In this document: positions 1 through 8,267 of the stretch, one piece after another
Position numbering within the stretch: the first letter of the stretch is position 1
Layout: every line of letters starts with the position of its first letter
Virus record (IMG/VR): IMGVR_UViG_2582580933_000007
Coordinates: 1-8,267 of that record
DNA from: a virus
Taxonomy: Duplodnaviria > Heunggongvirae > Uroviricota > Caudoviricetes
DNA length: 8,267 nucleotides
Strand: one strand, 5' to 3'
Position numbers and translations under genes: made by a program
The notes under the pieces: model-generated
The model's input: only the letters and a program-made list of their open reading frames with translations
What the model was told of the DNA's origin: nothing
The model's database searches: none

Positions 1-677
1 TCCCACTTCTGAACATCACTTTTCGCCCTGCGCAGCGCCAGGTTTGCCCTGCGAAGGGACGGAAAAATCAGCTCATCTGCTTGCGTTTCGGTAAACGATG
101 GCAACGGCTGCACAATGTCCGCCACAGTTTCTGTTTTAATTTCTTCCTGTGTTGCGGCTTCCCGGACTGGTAACGCAGCACCTGCTGGCTGAGGAAAGGC
201 CTTACCATCACTTTCCGTTACCAGCGCGGCTTTCGGCTCTGCTGGTAAATTATCGCCCGGCATGCAGTAACGAAATTTACCGTTCTGATTAACGCGTGCC
301 AGCCGCCCCGTTGCGGTTACCACCGCCAGCGTGGAAGCAACCTTGCGAGTACTGACACCGAACTTACCCGCCAGTTCCTCACACGTTTTAGCCCCATCCT
401 GACCGATAAACTCAATCATCATGTCTGCGGTAATTTTTTGTTCGACCTCCCCGGTCAGCATATCCTGTGCTTCAGATTTTACTGGCCGCTCTTCGGTTAC
501 CCGGGATTCACCTTCGCCAGCCAGAAACCAGGTGTGACCAGTTTTATCAACGACGCCATTTCTTTTGAGTTCCCACAGCTCGTTGACAGCCTCTTCACGA
601 CTGATTCCAAGGCTGGCCGCCACTACCTGTGAAGAGGCTCTTTTCAGTGCTTTCAGTGCGTCAAATACGGTTTCCAT
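1..677 (-). CDS. Hypothetical prophage protein with two winged-helix-like segments; 5' end complete, 3' end beyond the window
   Basis: Stop-free minus-strand frame from ATG at 677..675 to the window edge; absent from the ORF track only because it has no in-window stop. SD GGAGG (revcomp of 686-690) lies 8 nt upstream. My translation begins METVFDALKALKRASSQVVAASLGISREEAVNELWELKRNGVVDKTGHTWFLAG and has a second similar segment CEELAGKFGVSTRKVASTLAVVTATGRLARVNQNGKFRYC. Starts 34 nt after the stop of the P-like gene. Confidence 0.65.
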   Translation of the reverse strand, partial: METVFDALKALKRASSQVVAASLGISREEAVNELWELKRNGVVDKTGHTWFLAGEGESRVTEERPVKSEAQDMLTGEVEQKITADMMIEFIGQDGAKTCEELAGKFGVSTRKVASTLAVVTATGRLARVNQNGKFRYCMPGDNLPAEPKAALVTESDGKAFPQPAGAALPVREAATQEEIKTETVADIVQPLPSFTETQADELIFPSLRRANLALRRAKSDVQKW

Positions 678-710
678 TAATATTTCCTCCGACAAAATCG
701 TTTCTCAGAT

Positions 711-1373
711 TCAAATAAAACCAGCTGCCTTCCGGCGTTCGTATTCCTGTTTCAGCCGTTCAATTGGCGTTGGCCCTTGCGGGTGTTTCGCCCCTTCCAG
801 TTGTCGTCGCACTGGCGGAACACTCATCCCGTTACCAACATGCTTTGCCCATTTCGTCAGTTGCCGTTCCGCAAGTCGTTTTAACTCACCCTGCGTCATC
901 TGGCGCTCAATCCCTCTGGTACGCATTTCGAGGCAGATGTGGTACAGCACAGGCTGTGGCCACGGGTATTTATCACTCCCGTCGTATCGCCAGGATTCAT
1001 TGCGCCAGCGCCGGTACTCTTCCATCACTGCATCCACCGTAAGACCAAATGGATTTGCCCCACTCTCCGAAATCAGTGCAACAAACTCAGCCAGGTCCGG
1101 GGGCCACGTTTCACCCGCCCGGCAGCGGTCCATGCACCGACGGCAGATCTGCCGGATTTGCTGTTCAGTCATCGCGCCAATCTGAGCAATCCAGAGTTTC
1201 GACGGCGCAGCCCCGTTCTTCTGAGTCCAGCGGTTCGAATACACCTCCCCCATAAGCTCCCACAGCTTCCAGGCCGTTTCCGTTGCTGATAAATCCGTTT
1301 TCACGTTCCCACTGTTCGCGTGCAGCCCGGATTTCCTGAACTGCCCGTGATGCGGTGCCACCTGGTGCTGCAT
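711..1373 (-). CDS. Replication protein P-like (DnaB helicase loader, lambda P family)
   Basis: ORF-track 220-aa frame. The C-terminal two thirds resemble lambda P by eye (PPDLAEFVALI vs lambda PSPGQFVAWC; KYPWPQ vs SYPWKS; MTQGELKRLAERQLTKWAKHVGNGMSVPPVRRQL vs LTDAELRRKAADELVHMTARINRGEAIPEPVKQL, lambda segments quoted from memory). ATG at 1373 is preceded by AAGGGGG with a 6-nt spacer. Alternative start ATG 1172..1170 lies in an ATGACTGA junction with the upstream gene stop and would give 153 aa. Confidence 0.6.
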   Translation of the reverse strand: MQHQVAPHHGQFRKSGLHANSGNVKTDLSATETAWKLWELMGEVYSNRWTQKNGAAPSKLWIAQIGAMTEQQIRQICRRCMDRCRAGETWPPDLAEFVALISESGANPFGLTVDAVMEEYRRWRNESWRYDGSDKYPWPQPVLYHICLEMRTRGIERQMTQGELKRLAERQLTKWAKHVGNGMSVPPVRRQLEGAKHPQGPTPIERLKQEYERRKAAGFI

Positions 1374-2202
1374 GGCTTACCCCCTTGCTGACTGGTTTTA
1401 CCTGTGCCCTGACGTGCTGCACGTGGCGGGCAAATTTCTGCTCCCACTGAACCTGCGTGAAAACCTTCCCCTCCGCCATCCAGTAATCCCGGAATGCGGC
1501 AAGCTCAGCAGGTGTAAACTCAGGCTCAGGCAGAGCCATACCCCACACTGCTGCCCGCTGTCGAAAATCCGGCGACGGTTGCCAGACTCCAGTCATCGGA
1601 AATTTCCCGATCGGTTCGCTCAGGCCGTCCAGGTATTCAGGTTCGGCTGTCTGCAACGACGCGTCATTCAACTCACCGGTCGTAGCACTCTCGCGCATGC
1701 GCGCGTTATGTGTGGGGTTTAATTCTTTATCTGTATCTGTATCTGTCGTGATTTGTCGTGACATATGCGTGACGCGTCGTGACTCATCGTGACAATCAGT
1801 GTTCTGCTTCCGCAGTCTTTCCCGCTCCCGCTGCGCTCTCTTGCGCTCTGCCGGGGATTTTGCGGTTTGCGAAACATTACCGTTATCCTCCTTCATCACC
1901 TGGCGTTTTTCCCATCCGGAAATAAGATCACCATCCAGAACTCGCCCCTGCATTGCATGCAAAATTGAATCAATCACGTCTTCCGTCACATCAAGCGCAC
2001 TTGCTAAATCTTCCGTCGTGACATCAATGTGACCACGTAGTGACACGCCGTGACATGTCGTGACATTTCGTGACGCACTCACCAGAAGGTGGATATACAC
2101 CGCCATCACTGTTGCAATTGGCTGCCCTGACACCCTGGCAATTGTTCGCCACTTAGGGTCATTTGGCATGTCATGCCATAATCTGAGCCAAGCGTTAGCC
2201 AT
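1165..2202 (-). CDS. Phage replisome organizer / replication initiator (lambda O-like role), contains origin iterons
   Basis: ORF-track frame 1165..2208 (GTG). I prefer ATG at 2202..2200, which has SD GAGGTG upstream. N-terminus MANAWLRLWHDMPNDPKWRTIARVSGQPIATVMAVYIHLLVSAS fits the phage replisome-organizer N-terminal pattern (W-L-R-L...D-PK...I...G...VY-IHLL). Position after Cro/CII-like genes and before the P-like gene; two iteron arrays inside the gene. Confidence 0.7.
   Translation of the reverse strand: MANAWLRLWHDMPNDPKWRTIARVSGQPIATVMAVYIHLLVSASRNVTTCHGVSLRGHIDVTTEDLASALDVTEDVIDSILHAMQGRVLDGDLISGWEKRQVMKEDNGNVSQTAKSPAERKRAQRERERLRKQNTDCHDESRRVTHMSRQITTDTDTDKELNPTHNARMRESATTGELNDASLQTAEPEYLDGLSEPIGKFPMTGVWQPSPDFRQRAAVWGMALPEPEFTPAELAAFRDYWMAEGKVFTQVQWEQKFARHVQHVRAQVKPVSKGVSHAAPGGTASRAVQEIRAAREQWERENGFISNGNGLEAVGAYGGGVFEPLDSEERGCAVETLDCSDWRDD
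1728..1793. repeat. Origin-like repeat block A: 3 tandem TATCTG hexamers followed by 5 iterons (CGTGAT/CGTGAC) at 10-11 bp spacing
   Basis: TATCTG at 1728-1733, 1734-1739, 1740-1745. CGTGAT at 1747-1752; CGTGAC at 1757-1762, 1768-1773, 1778-1783, 1788-1793. Helical-turn periodicity inside the organizer gene, analogous to ori-lambda inside O. Confidence 0.55.
2017..2074. repeat. Origin-like repeat block B: 6 iterons (C/T/A)GTGAC at 10-11 bp spacing
   Basis: GTGAC cores beginning at 2017 (CGTGAC), 2028 (TGTGAC), 2039 (AGTGAC), 2049, 2059, 2069 (CGTGAC); same orientation and period as block A, about 225 bp away, in the N-terminal coding part of the organizer gene. Confidence 0.55.
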
Positions 2203-2273
2203 ACTCACCTCTTCTGATACCGAATCTTTTTACTCACGAGTTGCCGGAAGCGATTCGATATGGCTATTGTCAG

Positions 2274-2699
2274 TCAATGTACTGCCACAGCATTTCCTGC
2301 CGGGCCACCACGGTTCATCTGATTGAAACCGGCGATTACCACTGCGACAAAATCATCAGCGTCTCTCACCAATCGCTCCCGCGTCTCCACCAGCTCCCGA
2401 AAATAAGCTGAACTGTGGCTGCGCATTCTGGCCACCAGCAAAGGTGGCATTGCTTTTTCGATAGCTGGTAACAACGCCTGAATTTTTTTAACCGCATCAG
2501 GGGTGTCTTTCTCCACCCAGCGGAAAATTTTCTGAGTATTGCGAGCCAGAGCTTCCGGATGGCTGTCGTCATACAGTTCCGGGAACGTCATTCCCAGCTC
2601 GAAATACGCTTTGGTAATTTTCGCAGCAGGTACTTTTTCGCCGTCCGGATGCGCCCAGACATTCATCGCCATGCGGATGTGTTCATGCTTGATTTTCAT
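2274..2699 (-). CDS. ydaT: YdaT-family protein (CII-like regulator of Rac-type prophages)
   Basis: 141-aa ORF beginning MKIKHEHIRMAMNVWAHPDGEK, an N-terminus I recognise from memory as YdaT family. Lies immediately downstream of the Cro-like gene with an ATGA start/stop overlap at 2696-2699. Confidence 0.65.
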   Translation of the reverse strand: MKIKHEHIRMAMNVWAHPDGEKVPAAKITKAYFELGMTFPELYDDSHPEALARNTQKIFRWVEKDTPDAVKKIQALLPAIEKAMPPLLVARMRSHSSAYFRELVETRERLVRDADDFVAVVIAGFNQMNRGGPAGNAVAVH

Positions 2700-2998
2700 G
2701 AATCAACTCCATCAGATAAGCATGCACTACAATCACCTTCAGCATGAACTACATGCGTTTGCCCCAAACGAATGCCGCTAGCATACTCAGGCCAAATAAG
2801 CTCCCAATCATGGGGTCGTAGCTCCGCCCTACTTACTTGGCCTTCCGTCGCAGATTCGATCATAAGGGCGCGGGTTGGAGATATAGCTGCTCGTCCGGAC
2901 GCCATTTGCGATAAGTAAGATGGCGATACACCAAGTCTGGCCGCGAATTTCTTAGCATCACCAACCCTCAATGATTTAATAAACTCTTTTAATGTCAT
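2696..2998 (-). CDS. ydaS: YdaS-family Cro-like HTH regulator
   Basis: 100-aa ORF. HTH segment AARLGVSPSYLSQMASGRAAISPTRALMIESATEGQVSRAELRPHDW matches the YdaS/Cro-like family pattern. SD GAGGAAGG upstream of ATG 2998..2996. Divergent from the repressor gene. Confidence 0.7.
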   Translation of the reverse strand: MTLKEFIKSLRVGDAKKFAARLGVSPSYLSQMASGRAAISPTRALMIESATEGQVSRAELRPHDWELIWPEYASGIRLGQTHVVHAEGDCSACLSDGVDS

Positions 2999-3095
2999 AC
3001 CTTCCTCGGTTTAGTGTTTTCTTGCGAGTTTAGTGTTTAATAAACCATTAAGTCAAGTATTTGCTTGTTTAGTGATTACTAAAGATAATTACCAC
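2999..3095. promoter_or_regulatory. OR-like divergent promoter/operator region between the Cro-like (minus) and repressor (plus) genes
   Basis: Three direct copies of GTTTAGTG (3009-3016, 3028-3035, 3067-3074). Imperfect palindrome GTTTA-A-TAAAC at 3035-3045. Minus-strand promoter candidate: -35 TTGACT (revcomp of 3051-3056), 18-bp spacer, -10 TAAACT (revcomp of 3027-3032). Plus-strand promoter candidate: -35 TTGCTT (3061-3066), 17-bp spacer, -10 GATAAT (3084-3089), which would put the transcription start at or next to the repressor ATG at 3096. Confidence 0.55.
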
Positions 3096-3467
3096 ATGCA
3101 GAAAAAAGAAATTCGCCGTTTACGTCTCAAGGAGTGGTTTAAAGATAAAACTCTGCCACCCAAAGAGAAGAGCTACCTATCTCAACTAATGAGTGGGAGG
3201 GCCTCGTTTGGAGAAAAGGCTGCCAGAAGAATAGAGCAAACATACGGGATGCCGGAAGGGTATCTGGATGCGGAATACGCAGAACAACCGGAGATTTCTC
3301 CACCACATGCAGGGTTAACGTCTAATCAACTGGAATTATTGCAGATTTTTTCAGCCTTCCCTGAGGATGAGCAACGCCAGATAATCAGCGAGTTAAAGCA
3401 GAAAAAAGAATCAATGGAAGATCTCATAGCGAGATGGATTGCGGCGCAAAAATGCCGCCGCGCCTAA
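3096..3467 (+). CDS. paaR2: cI/DicA-like HTH repressor; PaaR2-like regulator of the three-component TA module
   Basis: In frame with the ORF-track 3033..3467 (GTG); first ATG at 3096. N-terminal HTH_XRE-like segment KEKSYLSQLMSGRASFGEKAARRIEQTYGMPEGYLD. C-terminal LTSNQLELLQIFSAFPEDEQ resembles the DicA C-terminal motif as I recall it. No SD before the ATG, consistent with a leaderless mRNA. Sits in the cI position, divergent from the Cro-like gene and directly upstream of the antitoxin/toxin pair. Confidence 0.65.
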   Translation: MQKKEIRRLRLKEWFKDKTLPPKEKSYLSQLMSGRASFGEKAARRIEQTYGMPEGYLDAEYAEQPEISPPHAGLTSNQLELLQIFSAFPEDEQRQIISELKQKKESMEDLIARWIAAQKCRRA

Positions 3468-3487
3468 GTTATAAAACCGGAGGAAAC

Positions 3488-3679
3488 ATGAATAGAGCCC
3501 TTTCACCAATGGTTTCTGAATTTGAAACCATTGAACAAGAAAACAGTTACAACGAATGGCTGCGTGCGAAAGTAGCAACGAGCCTTGCAGATCCGCGCCC
3601 AGCAATTCCCCATGACGAAGTTGAGCGCAGAATGGCAGAACGCTTTGCTAGAATGCGCAAGGAACGGAGCAAGCAGTAA
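3488..3679 (+). CDS. paaA2: ParD-like antitoxin (PaaA2) of a ParE-family toxin
   Basis: 63-aa ORF from ATG 3488 (internal start of ORF-track 3434..3679), SD GGAGG 4 nt upstream. Sequence MNRALSPMVSEFETIEQENSYNEWLRAKVATSLADPRPAIPHDEVERRMAERFARMRKERSKQ matches my recollection of PaaA2. Stop TAA 3677-3679 is 1 nt before the toxin ATG. Confidence 0.7.
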   Translation: MNRALSPMVSEFETIEQENSYNEWLRAKVATSLADPRPAIPHDEVERRMAERFARMRKERSKQ

Positions 3680-3680
3680 A

Positions 3681-3959
3681 ATGTTACCCGTGTTATGGCT
3701 TGAAAGCGCAGATACCGACCTAGATGATATAACCAGTTATATTGCTCGTTTCGACATAGATGCGGCTGAACGCTTATGGCAGCGATTAAGGGGTTGTGTG
3801 CTGCCGTTATCCGAACATCCGTATTTATACCCACCAAGCGACAGAGTACCTGGCTTGCGTGAGATTGTGGCCCACCCTAACTATATAATTCTATACCGCG
3901 TAACAACATCAAGCGTTGAAGTAGTAAACGTGATCCACGCAAGACGCCAGTTTCCCTAA
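3681..3959 (+). CDS. parE2: ParE/RelE-family toxin (ParE2)
   Basis: 92-codon ORF from ATG 3681, in frame with ORF-track 3585..3959. Sequence MLPVLWLESADTDLDDITSYIARFDIDAAERLWQRLRGCVLPLSEHPYLYPPSDRVPGLREIVAHPNYIILYRVTTSSVEVVNVIHARRQFP carries ParE-family hallmarks (LREIV...YIILYRV...V..V.H.RR). Tightly coupled to the upstream antitoxin gene. Confidence 0.75.
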   Translation: MLPVLWLESADTDLDDITSYIARFDIDAAERLWQRLRGCVLPLSEHPYLYPPSDRVPGLREIVAHPNYIILYRVTTSSVEVVNVIHARRQFP

Positions 3960-4029
3960 CTTTAACTACCAATAGAAACATAACAACCGCAACGACTTTA
4001 CCAAAAGCGTTGTGTTTGTTACGCCCCAC

Positions 4030-4072
4030 GGTTTAGTTTTTGCTTGACTTAAGTTTAATGTTTATTAAACTA
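4030..4072 (+). promoter_or_regulatory. OL/PL-like operator-promoter, a second copy of the OR operator module, driving the plus-strand early operon
   Basis: GGTTTAGT at 4030-4037, GTTTAATG at 4053-4060, palindrome GTTTA-T-TAAAC at 4060-4070. The 18-bp module GTTTA(A/G)TGTTTA(A/T)TAAAC occurs at 3028-3045 and 4053-4070. Promoter candidate: -35 TTGACT 4044-4049, 16-bp spacer, -10 TAAACT 4066-4071. Confidence 0.5.
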
Positions 4073-4250
4073 AAAATACCAACCCACCCCGCCCCACAGA
4101 ACGCAGGGCAATACTTCGAGTTACCCGGCAGTGGTCAGGGGTTAAGTAGCCAGCCCGAGGCGTAAGAACATGACGGCAGGGTTCAACTTTAATAACTATG
4201 CAGCAGGTTTTTGTTCCGCTACCCCGGCGTTAAGGGGAAATGAGGTCAAC

Positions 4251-4406
4251 ATGGATACTATCGATCTTGGCAACAACGAATCTCTGGTGTACGGCGTGTT
4301 TCCCAACCAGGACGGCACGTTCACCGCGATGACGTATACCAAAAGCAAAACGTTTAAAACCGAAAATGGTGCCCGTCGCTGGCTGGAAAGAAACTCAGGT
4401 GAGTGA
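4251..4406 (+). CDS. Small protein (51 aa), YdaF-like small protein of Rac-type prophages (tentative)
   Basis: ATG 4251 is preceded by TGAGGT with a 4-nt spacer. Translation MDTIDLGNNESLVYGVFPNQDGTFTAMTYTKSKTFKTENGARRWLERNSGE. The ORF track offers a longer form from ATG 4170 (78 aa), which has SD GAGG with a 9-nt spacer; the true start is unresolved. First gene downstream of the PL-like promoter. Confidence 0.55.
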   Translation: MDTIDLGNNESLVYGVFPNQDGTFTAMTYTKSKTFKTENGARRWLERNSGE

Positions 4407-4407
4407 T

Positions 4408-4536
4408 ATGGATTTCGACACAATCATGGAAAAGGCTTACGAAGAATACTTCGAAGACCTTGCCGAAGGCGAAGAAGCTCTCAGCTTCAGTGAGTTTAAA
4501 CAGGCGCTTTCCAGCTCGGCAAAATCTAACGGCTGA
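4408..4536 (+). CDS. Small acidic protein (42 aa), YdaG-like (tentative)
   Basis: Below the ORF-track length cutoff; found by hand. ATG 4408 overlaps the stop region of the preceding gene (GTGATATG). SD AGGTGA with a 5-nt spacer. Translation MDFDTIMEKAYEEYFEDLAEGEEALSFSEFKQALSSSAKSNG, stop TGA 4534-4536. Confidence 0.5.
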   Translation: MDFDTIMEKAYEEYFEDLAEGEEALSFSEFKQALSSSAKSNG

Positions 4537-4565
4537 TAAGCGAAGTAGCACCGCGAGGAATCAGT

Positions 4566-4784
4566 ATGCAGAAACGAGAACCCGTCATAATCGCGCCAGA
4601 CTATACCGATGATGAACTTTATGAGTGGATGCGCCAGAAAATTAATGCAGCGCAGGATCTGAAATGGGCTAATGAAGCCAGGGCTAAGCAGGCTGAAAAT
4701 CTGTCCGCTCTGGAGCAGGATATCACCAGGCTGGAAAAAGCAGCGGCATTAAGCATTGCCAGAATGATTACATACCCGCGTTAA
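4566..4784 (+). CDS. Hypothetical protein (72 aa)
   Basis: ORF-track frame; SD GAGGAA with a 5-nt spacer before ATG 4566. Translation MQKREPVIIAPDYTDDELYEWMRQKINAAQDLKWANEARAKQAENLSALEQDITRLEKAAALSIARMITYPR. No family recognised. Confidence 0.6.
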   Translation: MQKREPVIIAPDYTDDELYEWMRQKINAAQDLKWANEARAKQAENLSALEQDITRLEKAAALSIARMITYPR

Positions 4785-4806
4785 TAGCTAACCAACGAGG
4801 CTAATA

Positions 4807-5136
4807 ATGGAATTTAAAGATTTACCAATGCAATTCCAGGAAATGGCAGCGAATATAGTTCGTTCCCAACTGGCGACTCTTGACCTGAGTACCGTAGAAA
4901 AAGAAACCATCGATACTATATCCGGTAACGTGCGTCGTGCCTTTATCGGTCTGTACGAAGAGAAGAAGCTCTCTGATAACCAGGATTTACATGAAAAATA
5001 CTTCCTGGATCTAATGGACATCATTAATAAGGGGTTTGGCTTGTTAATGGAAAAGAAAGGGATTCGGATAGAACCCCTTGAAAATTGCTTCGTAACAAGA
5101 AGCATCAATTCTTTTGATTCAAAACAAGAGAATTAA
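4807..5136 (+). CDS. Hypothetical protein (109 aa), AT-rich codon usage
   Basis: ORF-track frame; SD GAGG with a 6-nt spacer before ATG 4807. Hydrophilic, Lys/Glu/Ile/Asn-rich. Its 3' end overlaps the convergent minus-strand gene by 32 bp. No family recognised. Confidence 0.6.
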   Translation: MEFKDLPMQFQEMAANIVRSQLATLDLSTVEKETIDTISGNVRRAFIGLYEEKKLSDNQDLHEKYFLDLMDIINKGFGLLMEKKGIRIEPLENCFVTRSINSFDSKQEN

Positions 5137-5380
5137 TTACAGATTTAACATGCTCTTTCTCATGATTGAAGCTCTCAGGGTTGAAAGTGCCCGGCTGAAG
5201 CGAGTCGATATAATCAACGAGATTCTTTCGTACCGTTTCATCTTTATTCATGGCAGATGCAAGGTATGAAATTGCTAACAATGTTATATCACTACGCGCC
5301 GCAGCATGCTGTAGTGTTTTATCAAAATCATTAATTTTCCGTATAAGAGAGTTAAGAGTTTCATTGACATCAAACCCCAT
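5105..5380 (-). CDS. Hypothetical protein (91 aa), antisense to the PL-like operon; likely moron
   Basis: Internal ATG 5380..5378 of the ORF-track frame 5105..5713, with strong SD AGGAGG (revcomp of 5386-5391) 5 nt upstream. Translation MGFDVNETLNSLIRKINDFDKTLQHAAARSDITLLAISYLASAMNKDETVRKNLVDYIDSLQPGTFNPESFNHEKEHVKSVINSLVLNQKN. The upstream 111 codons of the track ORF start at a TTG with no SD and are Arg/Pro/Cys-rich, so I treat them as non-coding. Confidence 0.5.
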   Translation of the reverse strand: MGFDVNETLNSLIRKINDFDKTLQHAAARSDITLLAISYLASAMNKDETVRKNLVDYIDSLQPGTFNPESFNHEKEHVKSVINSLVLNQKN

Positions 5381-5946
5381 TTCATCCTCCTGAGGGTTAG
5401 TAATTAAGGAGTTCTCCACGGGTGAGGTGGAGTGCGTGCGCCGGACACGGGTGAGCATCCGGCACTGACAGTTTACTGAAAGGATATCTCCCTGAAAAGT
5501 CAGGGCATAACGCGAAAGCGCACGGCGAAGTTGTTGGTTCATAGATAGCCTGTCGTTAAATTTTCGTCGACCGTGCGCTTCCGGTTGTGGCACTCCGCGA
5601 AATGGCGCGGCGGTAAGTATGGCGGGGTTATTCCTTCCCCGTTGAGGACACCGGGTTGTCAGGTTGACCATACGCTTAAGTGACAACCCCGCTGCAACGC
5701 CCTCTGTTATCAATTTTCTGGTGACGTTTGGCGGTATCAGTTTTACTCCGTGACTGCTCTGCCGCCCTTTTTAAAGTGAATTTTGTGATGTGGTGAATGC
5801 GGCTGAGCGCACGCGGAACAGTTAAAACCAAAAACAGTGTTATGGGTGGATTCTCTGTATCCGGCGTTAATTGTTAACTGGTTAACGTCACCTGGAGGCA
5901 CCAGGCACCGCATCAACAAAGTTCATTTGTAAAAATGGAGATAATT

Positions 5947-6168
5947 ATGATTGCTCATCACTTCGGAACTGATGAGATTCCTCGTCAGTGCGTGACTCCC
6001 GGTGATTATGTTATTCATAAAGGAAGAACATATATTGCTTCGGTAAACAACATTAAAAAACAACGGCTCTATATTCGTGATTTTTCCACACAACACTGTA
6101 TTAAGGAAACCATGATTAAAGTCTTCCTTGGTCGTGATGGTTTACCTGTAAAAGCAGAGTCATGGTGA
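5947..6168 (+). CDS. Hypothetical small protein (73 aa), AT-rich
   Basis: In frame with ORF-track 5935..6168. I prefer ATG 5947, which has SD GGAG (5937-5940) 6 nt upstream; the ATG at 5935 overlaps that SD. Translation [73 protein letters not shown]. Lies directly upstream of the exonuclease gene. Confidence 0.5.
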
Positions 6169-6291
6169 GCAGTAATAAAATAACTGCCACAATACGACAT
6201 TCAGCTTAATGAATACATCAGATTTGATTCTTATATGCCAGCAATGGCAGGGATTTGTTCATCCTTAAATCTGTCATGAGGTTAAAACAAA

Positions 6292-8267
6292 ATGAGTAAA
6301 GTCTTTATTTGCGCCGCCATTCCGGACGAACAGGCAATAAAGGAAGAAGGTGCAGTTGCTGTAGCCACTGCCATTGAAGCCGGTGACGAACGCCGCGCCC
6401 GTGCCAAATTTACCTGGCAATTCCTGGAGCAATATCCGGCTGCTCAGGACTGCGCTTATAAATTTCTTGTCTGCGAGGATAAACCTGGCATACCCCGCCC
6501 TGCCCTCGATTCATGGGATGCTGAATATATGCAGGAAAACCGCTGGGATGAGGAGTCTGCTTCTTTTGTCCCGGTTGAGACGGAATCCGATCCGATGAAC
6601 GTCACTTTTGACAAGCTGGCCCCTGAAGTACAGAACGCTGTCATGGTTAAGTTCGACACATGTGAAAACATCACCGTTGATATGGTTATTAGCGCACAGG
6701 AATTGTTGCAGGAAGACATGGCAACATTCGACGGACATATCGTTGAAGCGTTGATGAAAATGCCAGATGTTAACGCCATGTATCCGGAGCTTAAGCTGCA
6801 TGCCATCGGGTGGGTTAAGCATAAATGTAAGCCTGGTGCCAAATGGCCCGAAATTCAGGCAGAGATGCGCATCTGGAAAAAACGTCGCGAAGGTGAACGC
6901 AAGGAAACCGGAAAATACACGTCTGTTGTTGATCTCGCCCGCGCCAGAACCAATCAACAGCACACTGAAAATTCAACAGGAAAAATCAGCCCGGTCATTG
7001 CTGCCATTCATCGCGAATACAAGCAGACATGGAAAACACTGGATGACGAACTGGCCTACGCTCTCTGGCCTGGTGATGTGGATGCCGGAAACATTGACGG
7101 CAGCATCCATCGCTGGGCAAAAAATGAAGTTATCGACAACGACCGCGAAGACTGGAAGCGTATCTCGGCATCAATGCGCAAACAGCCTGATGCCCTTCGC
7201 TACGACCGCCAGACTATTTTTGGCCTTGTCCGTGAACGTCCGATCGACATTCACAAAGACCCTGTGGCACTGAACAAATACATTACTGAATACCTGACTA
7301 CAAAGGGCGTGTTTGAAGATGAAGGAAGAAATCAGAGCGCAACTGATACTCTCTCGTCGCCAGTACCAGAAACTGATGCAGTGGAAACGGCAATTCCGGA
7401 CAACGAAAAAACCGAATGCAAAGTGGAAGTCGAACCATCTGTAGAGCGTGAGGGGCCGTTCTACTTCCTCTTCACCGACAAGGATGGCGAAAAATACGGT
7501 CGCGCAAACAAACTTTCTGGTCTGGATAAGGCACTGGCTGCCGGGGCTACTGAAATCACCAAAGAAGAATACGTCGCCCGAAAAAATGGCACATACACAG
7601 GCTTACCGCAAAATACCAATGCCGCACAAAACTCTGAACAACCAGAGCCGGTAAAAGTTAACACGGTCGAAACAAATAAAAAAATGGAGACAGAAAATCT
7701 GCCTGATGCAGACAAAGTGCTTGCTGCATCACGTGGTGAATTTGTTGAAGGAATTAGCGACCCGAATGATCCGAAGTGGGTTGAGGGGATCCAGACTCGC
7801 GATTCTGTGTACCAGAATCAGCAAGAAATGGAACAGAACGACCAGAAAGCGGAACAAAACAGCCCGGATGCGCAACAAAACGGGCCAGAAGTGCAACAGT
7901 CAGAGCCAACAGCACAACAGGAGACTGAAAAAAGCTGCAATACTTGCGGCCGGGCTGGCGGCGGAAAATGTCCGGACTGCGGGCCTGTTATGGGTAACAC
8001 AACATATCAGGAAACATTCGATGAAGAAAATCTGGCTGAAAAAGATTCGGAGAAAATGGAAAGCACTGCGCATTCTCGTAAGGAGAGCGCTGGTGACGCT
8101 CAGCATGGCAATAGCAGTGATGAAACTGGCGAGACGGCAAATCCCCTAATTACGGTGAACAGTCATCATAAATACATATCCACCAGCAACAGAATGTGGA
8201 CTCATATGATGATCGACCTGGAAACCATGGGAAAAAATCCTGATGCCCCGATCATCTCAATAGGTGC
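6292..8267 (+). CDS. RecE-like (exodeoxyribonuclease VIII family) prophage exonuclease; 5' end complete, 3' end beyond the window
   Basis: Stop-free frame from ATG 6292 to the window edge (at least 658 codons); absent from the ORF track because it has no in-window stop; in-frame TAA at 6283-6285 just upstream. Segment DADKVLAASRGEFVEGISDPNDPKWVEGIQTRDSVYQNQ matches a RecE linker segment as I recall it. Also contains a Q/E-rich quasi-repeat, a CxxC-x7-CxxC motif (7936-7980) and MMIDLETMG (8206-8232) resembling the Exo I motif of DEDD exonucleases. The ORF-track frames 6374..6598, 6456..6842, 6511..6963, 6767..7273, 7448..7654, 7461..7715, 7706..8149, 7818..8000 and 7900..8106 are shadows of this gene. 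Confidence 0.7.
   Translation, partial: MSKVFICAAIPDEQAIKEEGAVAVATAIEAGDERRARAKFTWQFLEQYPAAQDCAYKFLVCEDKPGIPRPALDSWDAEYMQENRWDEESASFVPVETESDPMNVTFDKLAPEVQNAVMVKFDTCENITVDMVISAQELLQEDMATFDGHIVEALMKMPDVNAMYPELKLHAIGWVKHKCKPGAKWPEIQAEMRIWKKRREGERKETGKYTSVVDLARARTNQQHTENSTGKISPVIAAIHREYKQTWKTLDDELAYALWPGDVDAGNIDGSIHRWAKNEVIDNDREDWKRISASMRKQPDALRYDRQTIFGLVRERPIDIHKDPVALNKYITEYLTTKGVFEDEGRNQSATDTLSSPVPETDAVETAIPDNEKTECKVEVEPSVEREGPFYFLFTDKDGEKYGRANKLSGLDKALAAGATEITKEEYVARKNGTYTGLPQNTNAAQNSEQPEPVKVNTVETNKKMETENLPDADKVLAASRGEFVEGISDPNDPKWVEGIQTRDSVYQNQQEMEQNDQKAEQNSPDAQQNGPEVQQSEPTAQQETEKSCNTCGRAGGGKCPDCGPVMGNTTYQETFDEENLAEKDSEKMESTAHSRKESAGDAQHGNSSDETGETANPLITVNSHHKYISTSNRMWTHMMIDLETMGKNPDAPIISIG

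Follow-up and report, generated by a model that had tools for sequence, protein, structure and literature searches.

The convergent gene pair at positions 4,807 to 5,380 of an 8,267-nucleotide stretch of phage DNA (positions 1 to 8,267 of the IMG/VR virus record IMGVR_UViG_2582580933_000007, here called the window) is best read as the current occupant of a slot for accessory genes that is prone to recombination and lies in the dicBF operon of Qin/Rac-type prophages. The pair consists of gene A on the plus strand (4807-5136) and gene B on the minus strand (5105-5380). Our preferred reading, to which we give a probability of about 0.5, is that B is an independently exchangeable accessory gene that is probably expressed in the lysogen and opposed by transcription of the early operon. 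The window as a whole covers the immunity and early-left region of a lambdoid prophage of the Qin/Rac type in Escherichia coli, and what a preliminary description of this DNA had called a PL-like operon is the dicBF operon as found in the Qin prophage of E. coli K-12 (described in PMC5069750). This operon runs in the order ydfA (DUF1391), ydfB, ydfC, the convergent pair, an RNA leader, the small RNA (sRNA) DicF, a remnant of dicB, kil, and recE for a RecE-type exonuclease, with the names of the 3 ydf genes, the dicB remnant, kil, and recE taken from the annotation of identical DNA. As a mosaic accessory or moron locus in the position of sieB, the locus adds a further case to a known class and does not constitute a new kind of system.

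In a four-way alignment, K-12 Qin lacks exactly positions 4803-5392, with ...CAAAGCT joined straight to AAGGTTAGTAATTAAGGAG. Its ydfC can be aligned with the window up to position 4802; in the window, this gene (4566-4784 on the plus strand, annotated on identical DNA) is the last conserved gene of the dicBF operon ahead of the variable block. The block of around 590 bp, whose edges are good to about 3 bp, contains both genes together with both ribosome-binding sites and is low in guanine and cytosine (GC content 0.37-0.40 over 4801-5400 versus 0.46-0.55 in the flanks). Both the AT-richness of the pair relative to its surroundings and its interpretation as an accessory insertion in the early-left operon were therefore borne out: The block is missing from K-12 Qin, its GC content is low, and neither gene has a match in Pfam, NCBIfam, or PADLOC. 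Gene A starts with ATG and encodes 109 amino acids (aa) behind the Shine-Dalgarno (SD) sequence GAGG (4797-4800), six nucleotides (nt) ahead of the start codon. Gene B starts with the ATG at 5380 and encodes 91 aa behind the SD sequence AGGAGG (5386-5391 on the minus strand, CCTCCT on the plus strand), five nt ahead of its start. These motifs and the coordinates of the open reading frames (ORFs) confirm the good SD sequences and the 32-bp 3′ overlap (5105-5136, coding on both strands) that the preliminary description had ascribed to the pair. The overlap sits in low-constraint termini, as it codes for the disordered tail of A, where the predicted local distance difference test (pLDDT) score falls below 50, and for the nonconserved C-terminus of B.

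Other prophages hold other genes at the same place. In the prophage of 118UI, the plus-strand gene there encodes 133 aa and the minus-strand gene 92 aa, E09 has genes of 124 and 73 aa, O145 and O157 strains as well as phage Evi have genes of 135 and 77 aa, and some loci have genes of 201 and 63 aa, while O157 strain Z1723 carries only a 124-aa plus-strand gene, its type having apparently arisen from the E09 type by deletion. Scanning IMG/VR for the constant junction of the slot (leader start and SD) returned 119 loci with a minus-strand ORF that begins at the same SD-ATG. These ORFs form five families (B4, B2, B1, B3, and B5), and only 3 of those listed in the scan are clearly truncated. Gene B of the window represents allele a of family B1 (91 aa), which is present in 198 of 5426 complete E. 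coli genomes, 21 of them with the allele of the window. The same genome set contains family B2 (92 aa) 127 times, B3 (73 aa) 88 times, and B4 (77 aa) 650 times, with B4 being the version carried by O157 strains; the 63-aa family B5 was seen among the IMG/VR junction loci. Besides the 198 genomes with B1, roughly 865 further genomes thus have an alternative intact slot gene. Since the surrounding locus is found in approximately 4700 of these genomes, the slot must be empty in most dicBF loci and filled in roughly a fifth of genomes. Absence or disruption of the minus-strand ORF in most homologous prophages, with no transcript detected, had been named in advance as an argument against an accessory module, and absence is what we observed when B1 alone is counted (198 of 5426 genomes, with the locus in around 4700), but alternatives take its place in some 865 genomes and the genes are nearly always intact.

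The slot has a constant right edge, formed by the leader start, the SD sequence, and the ATG, and its left neighbor is the last conserved early gene. All slot genes are oriented opposite to the operon and meet the preceding early gene tail-to-tail, with the far end of the cassette supplying the final codons of that gene. The SD sequence and start position are common to all five E. coli slot families, and the relatives in Salmonella have GGAGG. Directly at this boundary begins the DicF-precursor leader (5393-5715 on the plus strand), a conserved, GC-rich, and highly structured segment of around 320 nt whose left edge is the right boundary of the slot. By sequence, the families are mostly separate: Profile comparisons with hhalign found no relationship of B3, B4, or B5 to B1 and B2, and scans of the slot variants against Pfam, NCBIfam, PADLOC, and PHROG returned only PHROGs of unknown function.

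The annotation of gene B itself required a correction. RefSeq calls both genes on identical DNA and gives B as a protein of 145 aa (5105-5542). The minus-strand frame of B is indeed open across 5105-5713, and the ATG at 5380 yields the 91-aa product. We rejected the 145-aa model, whose extension traverses the conserved noncoding DicF leader, because the leader differs in length between loci by non-multiples of three (282-289 nt), because at other loci this leader is followed by different slot genes in different frames, and because every slot gene begins at the same SD-ATG. The 91-aa form is the right gene model. The RefSeq protein WP_001317923.1 (145 aa), the first 54 residues of which are read from the noncoding DicF leader, and the protein cluster P0003 (481 member sequences) both extend the 91-aa protein too far.

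This over-extension, together with the restriction of B1 relatives to Escherichia and Salmonella in the searches made here, might suggest that the minus-strand ORF is open merely by chance or stems from faulty annotation, but we consider such an explanation very improbable in light of several observations. None of 2000 dinucleotide-preserving shuffles of the 590-bp block produced ATG-initiated ORFs of 91 aa or more on both strands, and 67 of the 2000 showed one on either strand. Compared to a second natural allele (43 differences in 276 nt), gene B has a ratio of nonsynonymous to synonymous substitution rates (Ka/Ks) of 0.30 in its own frame, the lowest of all six frames, which points to purifying selection on the protein. 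All of the approximately 50 IMG/VR loci with this ORF have it intact, and in one of them it contains an in-frame duplication of 5 aa. To this can be added the conserved SD sequence and the membership of B in a remotely homologous family with invariant residues.

That family emerged only from sensitive comparisons. Gene B has no match in PHROG, just as in Pfam, NCBIfam, and PADLOC, and a comparison to PADLOC-DB 2.0 gave nothing beyond a chance-level match to BrxA (E 0.024, 12 bits). A tblastn search of 50,697 phage records found no match, and a word-indexed protein search retrieved relatives from E. coli only. An exhaustive search of 1.84 billion representative sequences with a B profile then yielded one informative match, the 92-aa protein P0138 (E 1.3e-4 library-wide), next to fragments of B and two long proteins with repeated short matches. 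Pairwise, B and P0138 share 34% identity (E 1e-9). The close relatives of P0138 are annotated as Salmonella enterica proteins, and P0138 is in turn a clear relative of the B2 protein of 118UI. Direct comparisons of B with PHROG 18692 or with this B2 protein gave no match, so that the link runs via P0138, and B1 and B2 (including PHROG 18692) therefore form one diverged family. Across Escherichia and Salmonella, its members are alike in length and share the invariant positions R29, D31, L34, S38, K46, and R51, with K75 being nearly so. Several of the E. coli B2 genes (P0152, P0156, and P0158-P0160) have frameshifts in their last third, which indicates that some copies of slot genes are decaying. 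The B protein is predicted to be soluble, with an isoelectric point (pI) of 5.8, a grand average of hydropathy of -0.42, and no hydrophobic segment (highest 19-residue Kyte-Doolittle mean 1.09). Its AlphaFold2 model has four helices (pLDDT 66) and gave no Foldseek match at E 0.001 in the PDB or BFVD, where designed helical bundles were the top matches.

For gene A, the earlier statement that neither protein matches a known family does not hold, though it stands for B as far as Pfam, NCBIfam, PADLOC, and PHROG are concerned. Residues 1-107 of A align to profile positions 1-107 of 124 of PHROG 6937 (E 2.2e-66), a family whose function is not known. The N-terminal part of about 55 aa is common to PHROGs 1363, 2151, 9419, and 33007 and is also found, at 40-46% identity, in early-left proteins of Shiga toxin-converting phages. 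All relatives of A come from Escherichia and Salmonella and are named hypothetical. A is therefore a modular early protein that combines a constant N-terminal domain with swappable bodies (mid1, mid2, and mid3) and a tail dictated by the cassette. It is acidic (pI 4.9) and predicted to be soluble, and its AlphaFold2 model (pLDDT 67) shows helices at residues 8-23, 32-54, and 59-83 followed by a disordered tail at 92-109, the portion that is coded by the overlap. Foldseek found no match for A in the PDB at E 0.001, again with designed helical bundles at the top, and a sequence search of the PDB with profiles of A and B returned nothing below E 0.2. As both AlphaFold2 models are low-confidence helical bundles, no fold was assigned to either protein.

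The possibility raised earlier that the two genes travel as a unit did not withstand a comparison of loci. A is found without B at about 28 of 89 A loci (e.g., in O157 strain Z1723), A(mid1) being frequent without any B, the same A body accompanies either B1 or B3, and B2 has unrelated partners in Salmonella. There, relatives of B2 in Rac-like prophages overlap a 71-aa protein by 41 bp, and this protein corresponds to the C-terminal module of the A protein of 118UI. In other Salmonella elements, with Cox-like and C4-RNA features, B2 overlaps an unrelated helix-turn-helix (HTH) protein of 171 or 191 aa, again by 41 bp. The overlap has a fixed length for each slot type (11, 23, 32, or 41 bp), and across the Salmonella partners of B2 similarity ends around 20 nt beyond the B stop codon. 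What moves is therefore B together with a short 3′ flank, and the upstream gene reads into the B cassette until it meets a stop codon. On these comparative grounds, A and B are not an obligate unit.

The same comparisons bear on the idea that A and B are a cognate interacting pair, either toxin and neutralizer or effector and inhibitor, of which one is made in the lysogen and the other on induction, with the variable C-terminus of A recognizing its own B. It would fit with the observation that all complete slot genes of E. coli overlap a gene of the A family, with a single type of A body for each B type, with the 71-aa module of the 118UI A protein that also adjoins B2 in Salmonella Rac-like prophages, and with the maintenance of the convergent arrangement across prophage backbones. 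We nevertheless regard a cognate pair as unlikely. The mapping of B types to A bodies is many-to-one rather than one-to-one (B1 and B3 with mid1, B4 and B5 with mid2, and B2 with mid3), A(mid1) is common without B, and the HTH partners of B2 resemble its other partners only in their last ~20 residues, which are encoded by the cassette. Adjacent DNA would be co-inherited regardless of any interaction of the products. The strict partner co-occurrence of type II toxin-antitoxin (TA) systems is not seen, given that A occurs without B, that B1 and B3 share one A body, and that B2 has three kinds of partners. Differently from type II TA systems, the genes are also convergent and not co-directional or cotranscribed, and the best TA match, a RelB-like hit of the 118UI B2 protein (E 0.014), is below any threshold.

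Our preferred reading, that of an exchangeable gene which the early operon opposes, would work as follows. B would be transcribed separately, against the DicA-repressed operon, and thus be made in the lysogen. Once the early promoter fires, transcriptional collision and the 32-bp RNA duplex would shut B down, and A, an ordinary early accessory protein, would be produced only then. The B transcript could be ended by two candidate terminator hairpins just 3′ of its stop codon and inside the coding sequence of A (5047-5104 on the minus strand), which were found by pattern matching only: One at 5104-5086 is followed by AUUUUC and one at 5079-5057 by UCUUUUCC. The second hairpin is kept in the other B1 allele, and two hairpins with short U runs lie 3′ of the B stop codon in both B1 alleles, with less clear signals at other slot types. 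By analogy with sieB position and with morons, the most likely role of B would be a benefit for the lysogen through exclusion or abortion of other phages or through modulation of a host target.

The preliminary description had rightly recognized the location of B as a classic early-left spot for an opposite-strand gene, since Rac and lambda hold sieB there. The order in K-12 Rac is racR, ydaG, ydaF (DUF1391), sieB (in opposite orientation and with a 4-bp overlap with ydaF), a short leader, the sRNA KilS, and kilR for an FtsZ inhibitor. In lambda, sieB (34482-35036 on the plus strand) lies tail-to-tail and without a gap with N on the complement (35037-35438). Like B, sieB of lambda and Rac is thus directed against a PL-type early operon and meets the preceding early gene tail-to-tail. 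SieB is a hydrophobic, membrane-associated protein of about 160-190 aa. For phage P22, sieB is listed among the functions expressed from the prophage (PMC10883804), and sas, an antisense RNA, acts as a switch on the translation of this gene (PMC7067206, PMC12197685). The Rac leader beside sieB differs from that of the slot in lacking the SD junction common to B-slot genes; it is related to the short leader of a Salmonella locus (L096) that ends in a DicF-like RNA (36 bits). KilS of Rac (L218, 3906-4003) is itself a relative of DicF (39 bits, E 5e-7, under the Rfam gathering score), and its placement relative to sieB and kilR corresponds to that of DicF relative to gene B and dicB-kil.

A number of results weigh against lysogenic expression of B as a SieB-like or otherwise beneficial factor. 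We found no sequence homology of B to SieB (E 1.3 in a BLASTP comparison of B with Rac SieB and no Pfam or PHROG match to SieB), and B with its 91 aa and no hydrophobic segment differs from SieB proteins of 162-192 aa. The analogy in function is therefore one by position only. No PADLOC defense model matches A or B, no toxin or antitoxin family of Pfam, NCBIfam, or PADLOC does either, and the predicted structures, being low-confidence helical bundles, show no significant fold match. The regular association of E. coli slot genes with A-family genes described above also means that A and B may be functionally linked. A search of the region upstream of B including the complement of the leader found no sigma-70-like promoter; the "own RBS" attributed to the minus-strand gene is present (AGGAGG), but an own promoter was not identified. 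The sole minus-strand promoter match (5877-5850) lies beyond DicF and is unlinked to B, as K-12 has it equally without having a B gene and 118UI, with its B2 gene, does not have it. With the leader as the fixed right boundary of the slot, any promoter of B would have to lie within its complement or beyond it. We also inspected the complement of the leader by eye for promoter hexamers but dropped the candidates, which were weak and lacked conservation in Salmonella. The leader was also considered as a 5′ untranslated region of B and rejected for this role, with covariation and G-U pairs favoring the operon strand.

The absence of a nearby promoter, along with the co-orientation of B with the rightward (replication) genes of the window, is what one would predict if B were expressed late in lytic growth, e.g., by rightward read-through, as a protein of the phage cycle or of anti-defense. 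We hold this to be distinctly improbable, as its positional analogue sieB is described as expressed from the prophage (PMC10883804). A marginally less improbable reading is that the minus-strand unit acts mainly at the level of RNA, with antisense transcription dampening leaky read-through into the toxic products DicF, DicB, and Kil in the lysogen and the protein being secondary. The slot always adjoins the leader of DicF, or of KilS in the case of Rac, ahead of the division inhibitors, the slot gene is always in opposite orientation and always overlaps the upstream gene, and five unrelated coding sequences occupy one place in an operon that is already processed by RNase III (PMC5069750). However, an RNA-level brake would leave unexplained the signs of purifying selection on the B protein, the residues that are invariant across Escherichia and Salmonella, and the strong SD sequence and intact ORF in all five families, and most dicBF loci, including that of K-12, do without a slot gene.

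Comparison with known systems places the lysogen-expressed accessory gene that we favor close to, but not squarely within, established categories. Morons are independent accessory transcription units between conserved phage genes, such as bor and lom of lambda or gene 15 of HK97. The block of A and B resembles them in being present or absent between collinear prophages, in its distinct base composition, in what may be a terminator hairpin 3′ of the gene, and in being dispensable for the prophage backbone. It differs in that B is not free-standing but has a 3′ end in common with the early gene ahead of it in the operon, that no promoter was identified, and that the fixed translation-initiation region of the slot is reused by unrelated genes. 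P2- and P4-like elements are known for accessory-gene hotspots at fixed positions, and the slot shares with these the fixed position, the conserved flanks, and alternative unrelated cargo in different isolates. Its cargo is, however, very small (63-92 aa) and matched no known defense model. Convergent transcripts with complementary 3′ ends are also familiar from lambda OOP versus cII and from the type I TA systems par/fst of pAD1 and txpA/ratA, where the complementary ends form a duplex that leads to RNase III-dependent decay. A and B are likewise convergent with complementary 3′ ends, but their duplex would comprise just 32 bp, and, unlike in type I TA systems, both genes code for soluble proteins (109 and 91 aa) with no small hydrophobic toxin among them. 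Accessory or "moron" loci that are expressed in lysogens are discussed, and OOP is mentioned, in PMC7067206.

A more ambitious version of our reading would take the slot as a whole to be the equivalent of sieB, a hitherto unrecognized hotspot for anti-phage or host-modulating mini-proteins that are expressed in lysogens, with B1-B5 all switched off on induction and the variable C-terminus of A serving as an escape or antidote factor. This version strikes us as doubtful, and we put it on about the same footing as the cognate pair.

The leader that bounds the slot has conspicuous features of its own. Its conservation between prophages of E. coli and elements of Salmonella is strong, and it is predicted to fold into a closed multi-helix domain of 82 pairs, of which 13 show compensatory changes; its G-U pairs are on the plus strand, and it has no match in Rfam. 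We noted a long perfect helix of AAGCGCACGG with CCGTGCGCTT that resembles an RNase III substrate and a hairpin, CCCUGAAAAGUCAGGG, that is reminiscent of lambda boxB. A role of the leader in the processing of DicF or in read-through of terminators is possible. The same leader with a B2 gene occurs in another kind of element in three Salmonella enterica loci (L093, L094, and L095, at ~4640-4990), which, besides an integrase and Phage_ASH, have an HTH repressor, a Cox-like gene, and a C4 antisense RNA (77 bits). DicF could not be detected in these loci, where the leader ends in a terminator-like hairpin; the leader therefore travels with something besides canonical DicF.

Downstream of the leader, the window encodes DicF at 5716-5767 on the plus strand (Rfam RF00039, 76.7 bits, E 4.7e-16). 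Of dicB, only an N-terminal remnant is left (~5837-5920 on the plus strand), followed by a Rac-type kil gene (5947-6168), so that 3′ of DicF one FtsZ-directed division inhibitor has been replaced by another. A subthreshold match to the Salmonella sRNA family STnc100 lies just 3′ of DicF (5769-5954 on the plus strand, 37.9 bits), and another lies just 3′ of KilS (L218, 3723-3909 on the minus strand, 28 bits), both in the spacer ahead of the division-inhibitor gene. The minus strand of the window carries replication genes, a YdaT-like gene, and a YdaS/Cro-like gene, and the plus strand in the 5′ part of the early region has genes for an HTH regulator, a PaaA2 antitoxin, and a ParE toxin, in this order. 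More precisely, the repressor position of the immunity region (3033-3959 on the plus strand) holds the gene of a 144-aa HTH protein, 3′ of which follow a PaaA2-type antitoxin gene (3434-3679) and a ParE toxin gene (3585-3959, both on the plus strand). We take these three genes to resemble the paaR2-paaA2-parE2 module of an O157 prophage, and it appears that a toxin-antitoxin module has been wired into the immunity switch of the prophage.

A literature search with the protein accessions and with dicBF-related terms found no description of A, B, or the slot. Should A and B prove to be without a phenotype, this would be just another case of lambdoid mosaicism. The analysis corrects the gene model of B in RefSeq from 145 to 91 aa. 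Qin/Rac-type prophages with a dicBF operon reside in most E. coli genomes and already provide these with the phage-resistance factor DicB and the well-studied sRNA DicF. About a fifth of complete E. coli genomes carry, at a position like that of sieB, an uncharacterized small gene from one of at least 5 families. These slot genes are defined and easily cloned candidates for exclusion, defense, or host-control proteins, and the slot itself constitutes a natural system for the control of genes by convergent transcription beside the precursor of an sRNA.

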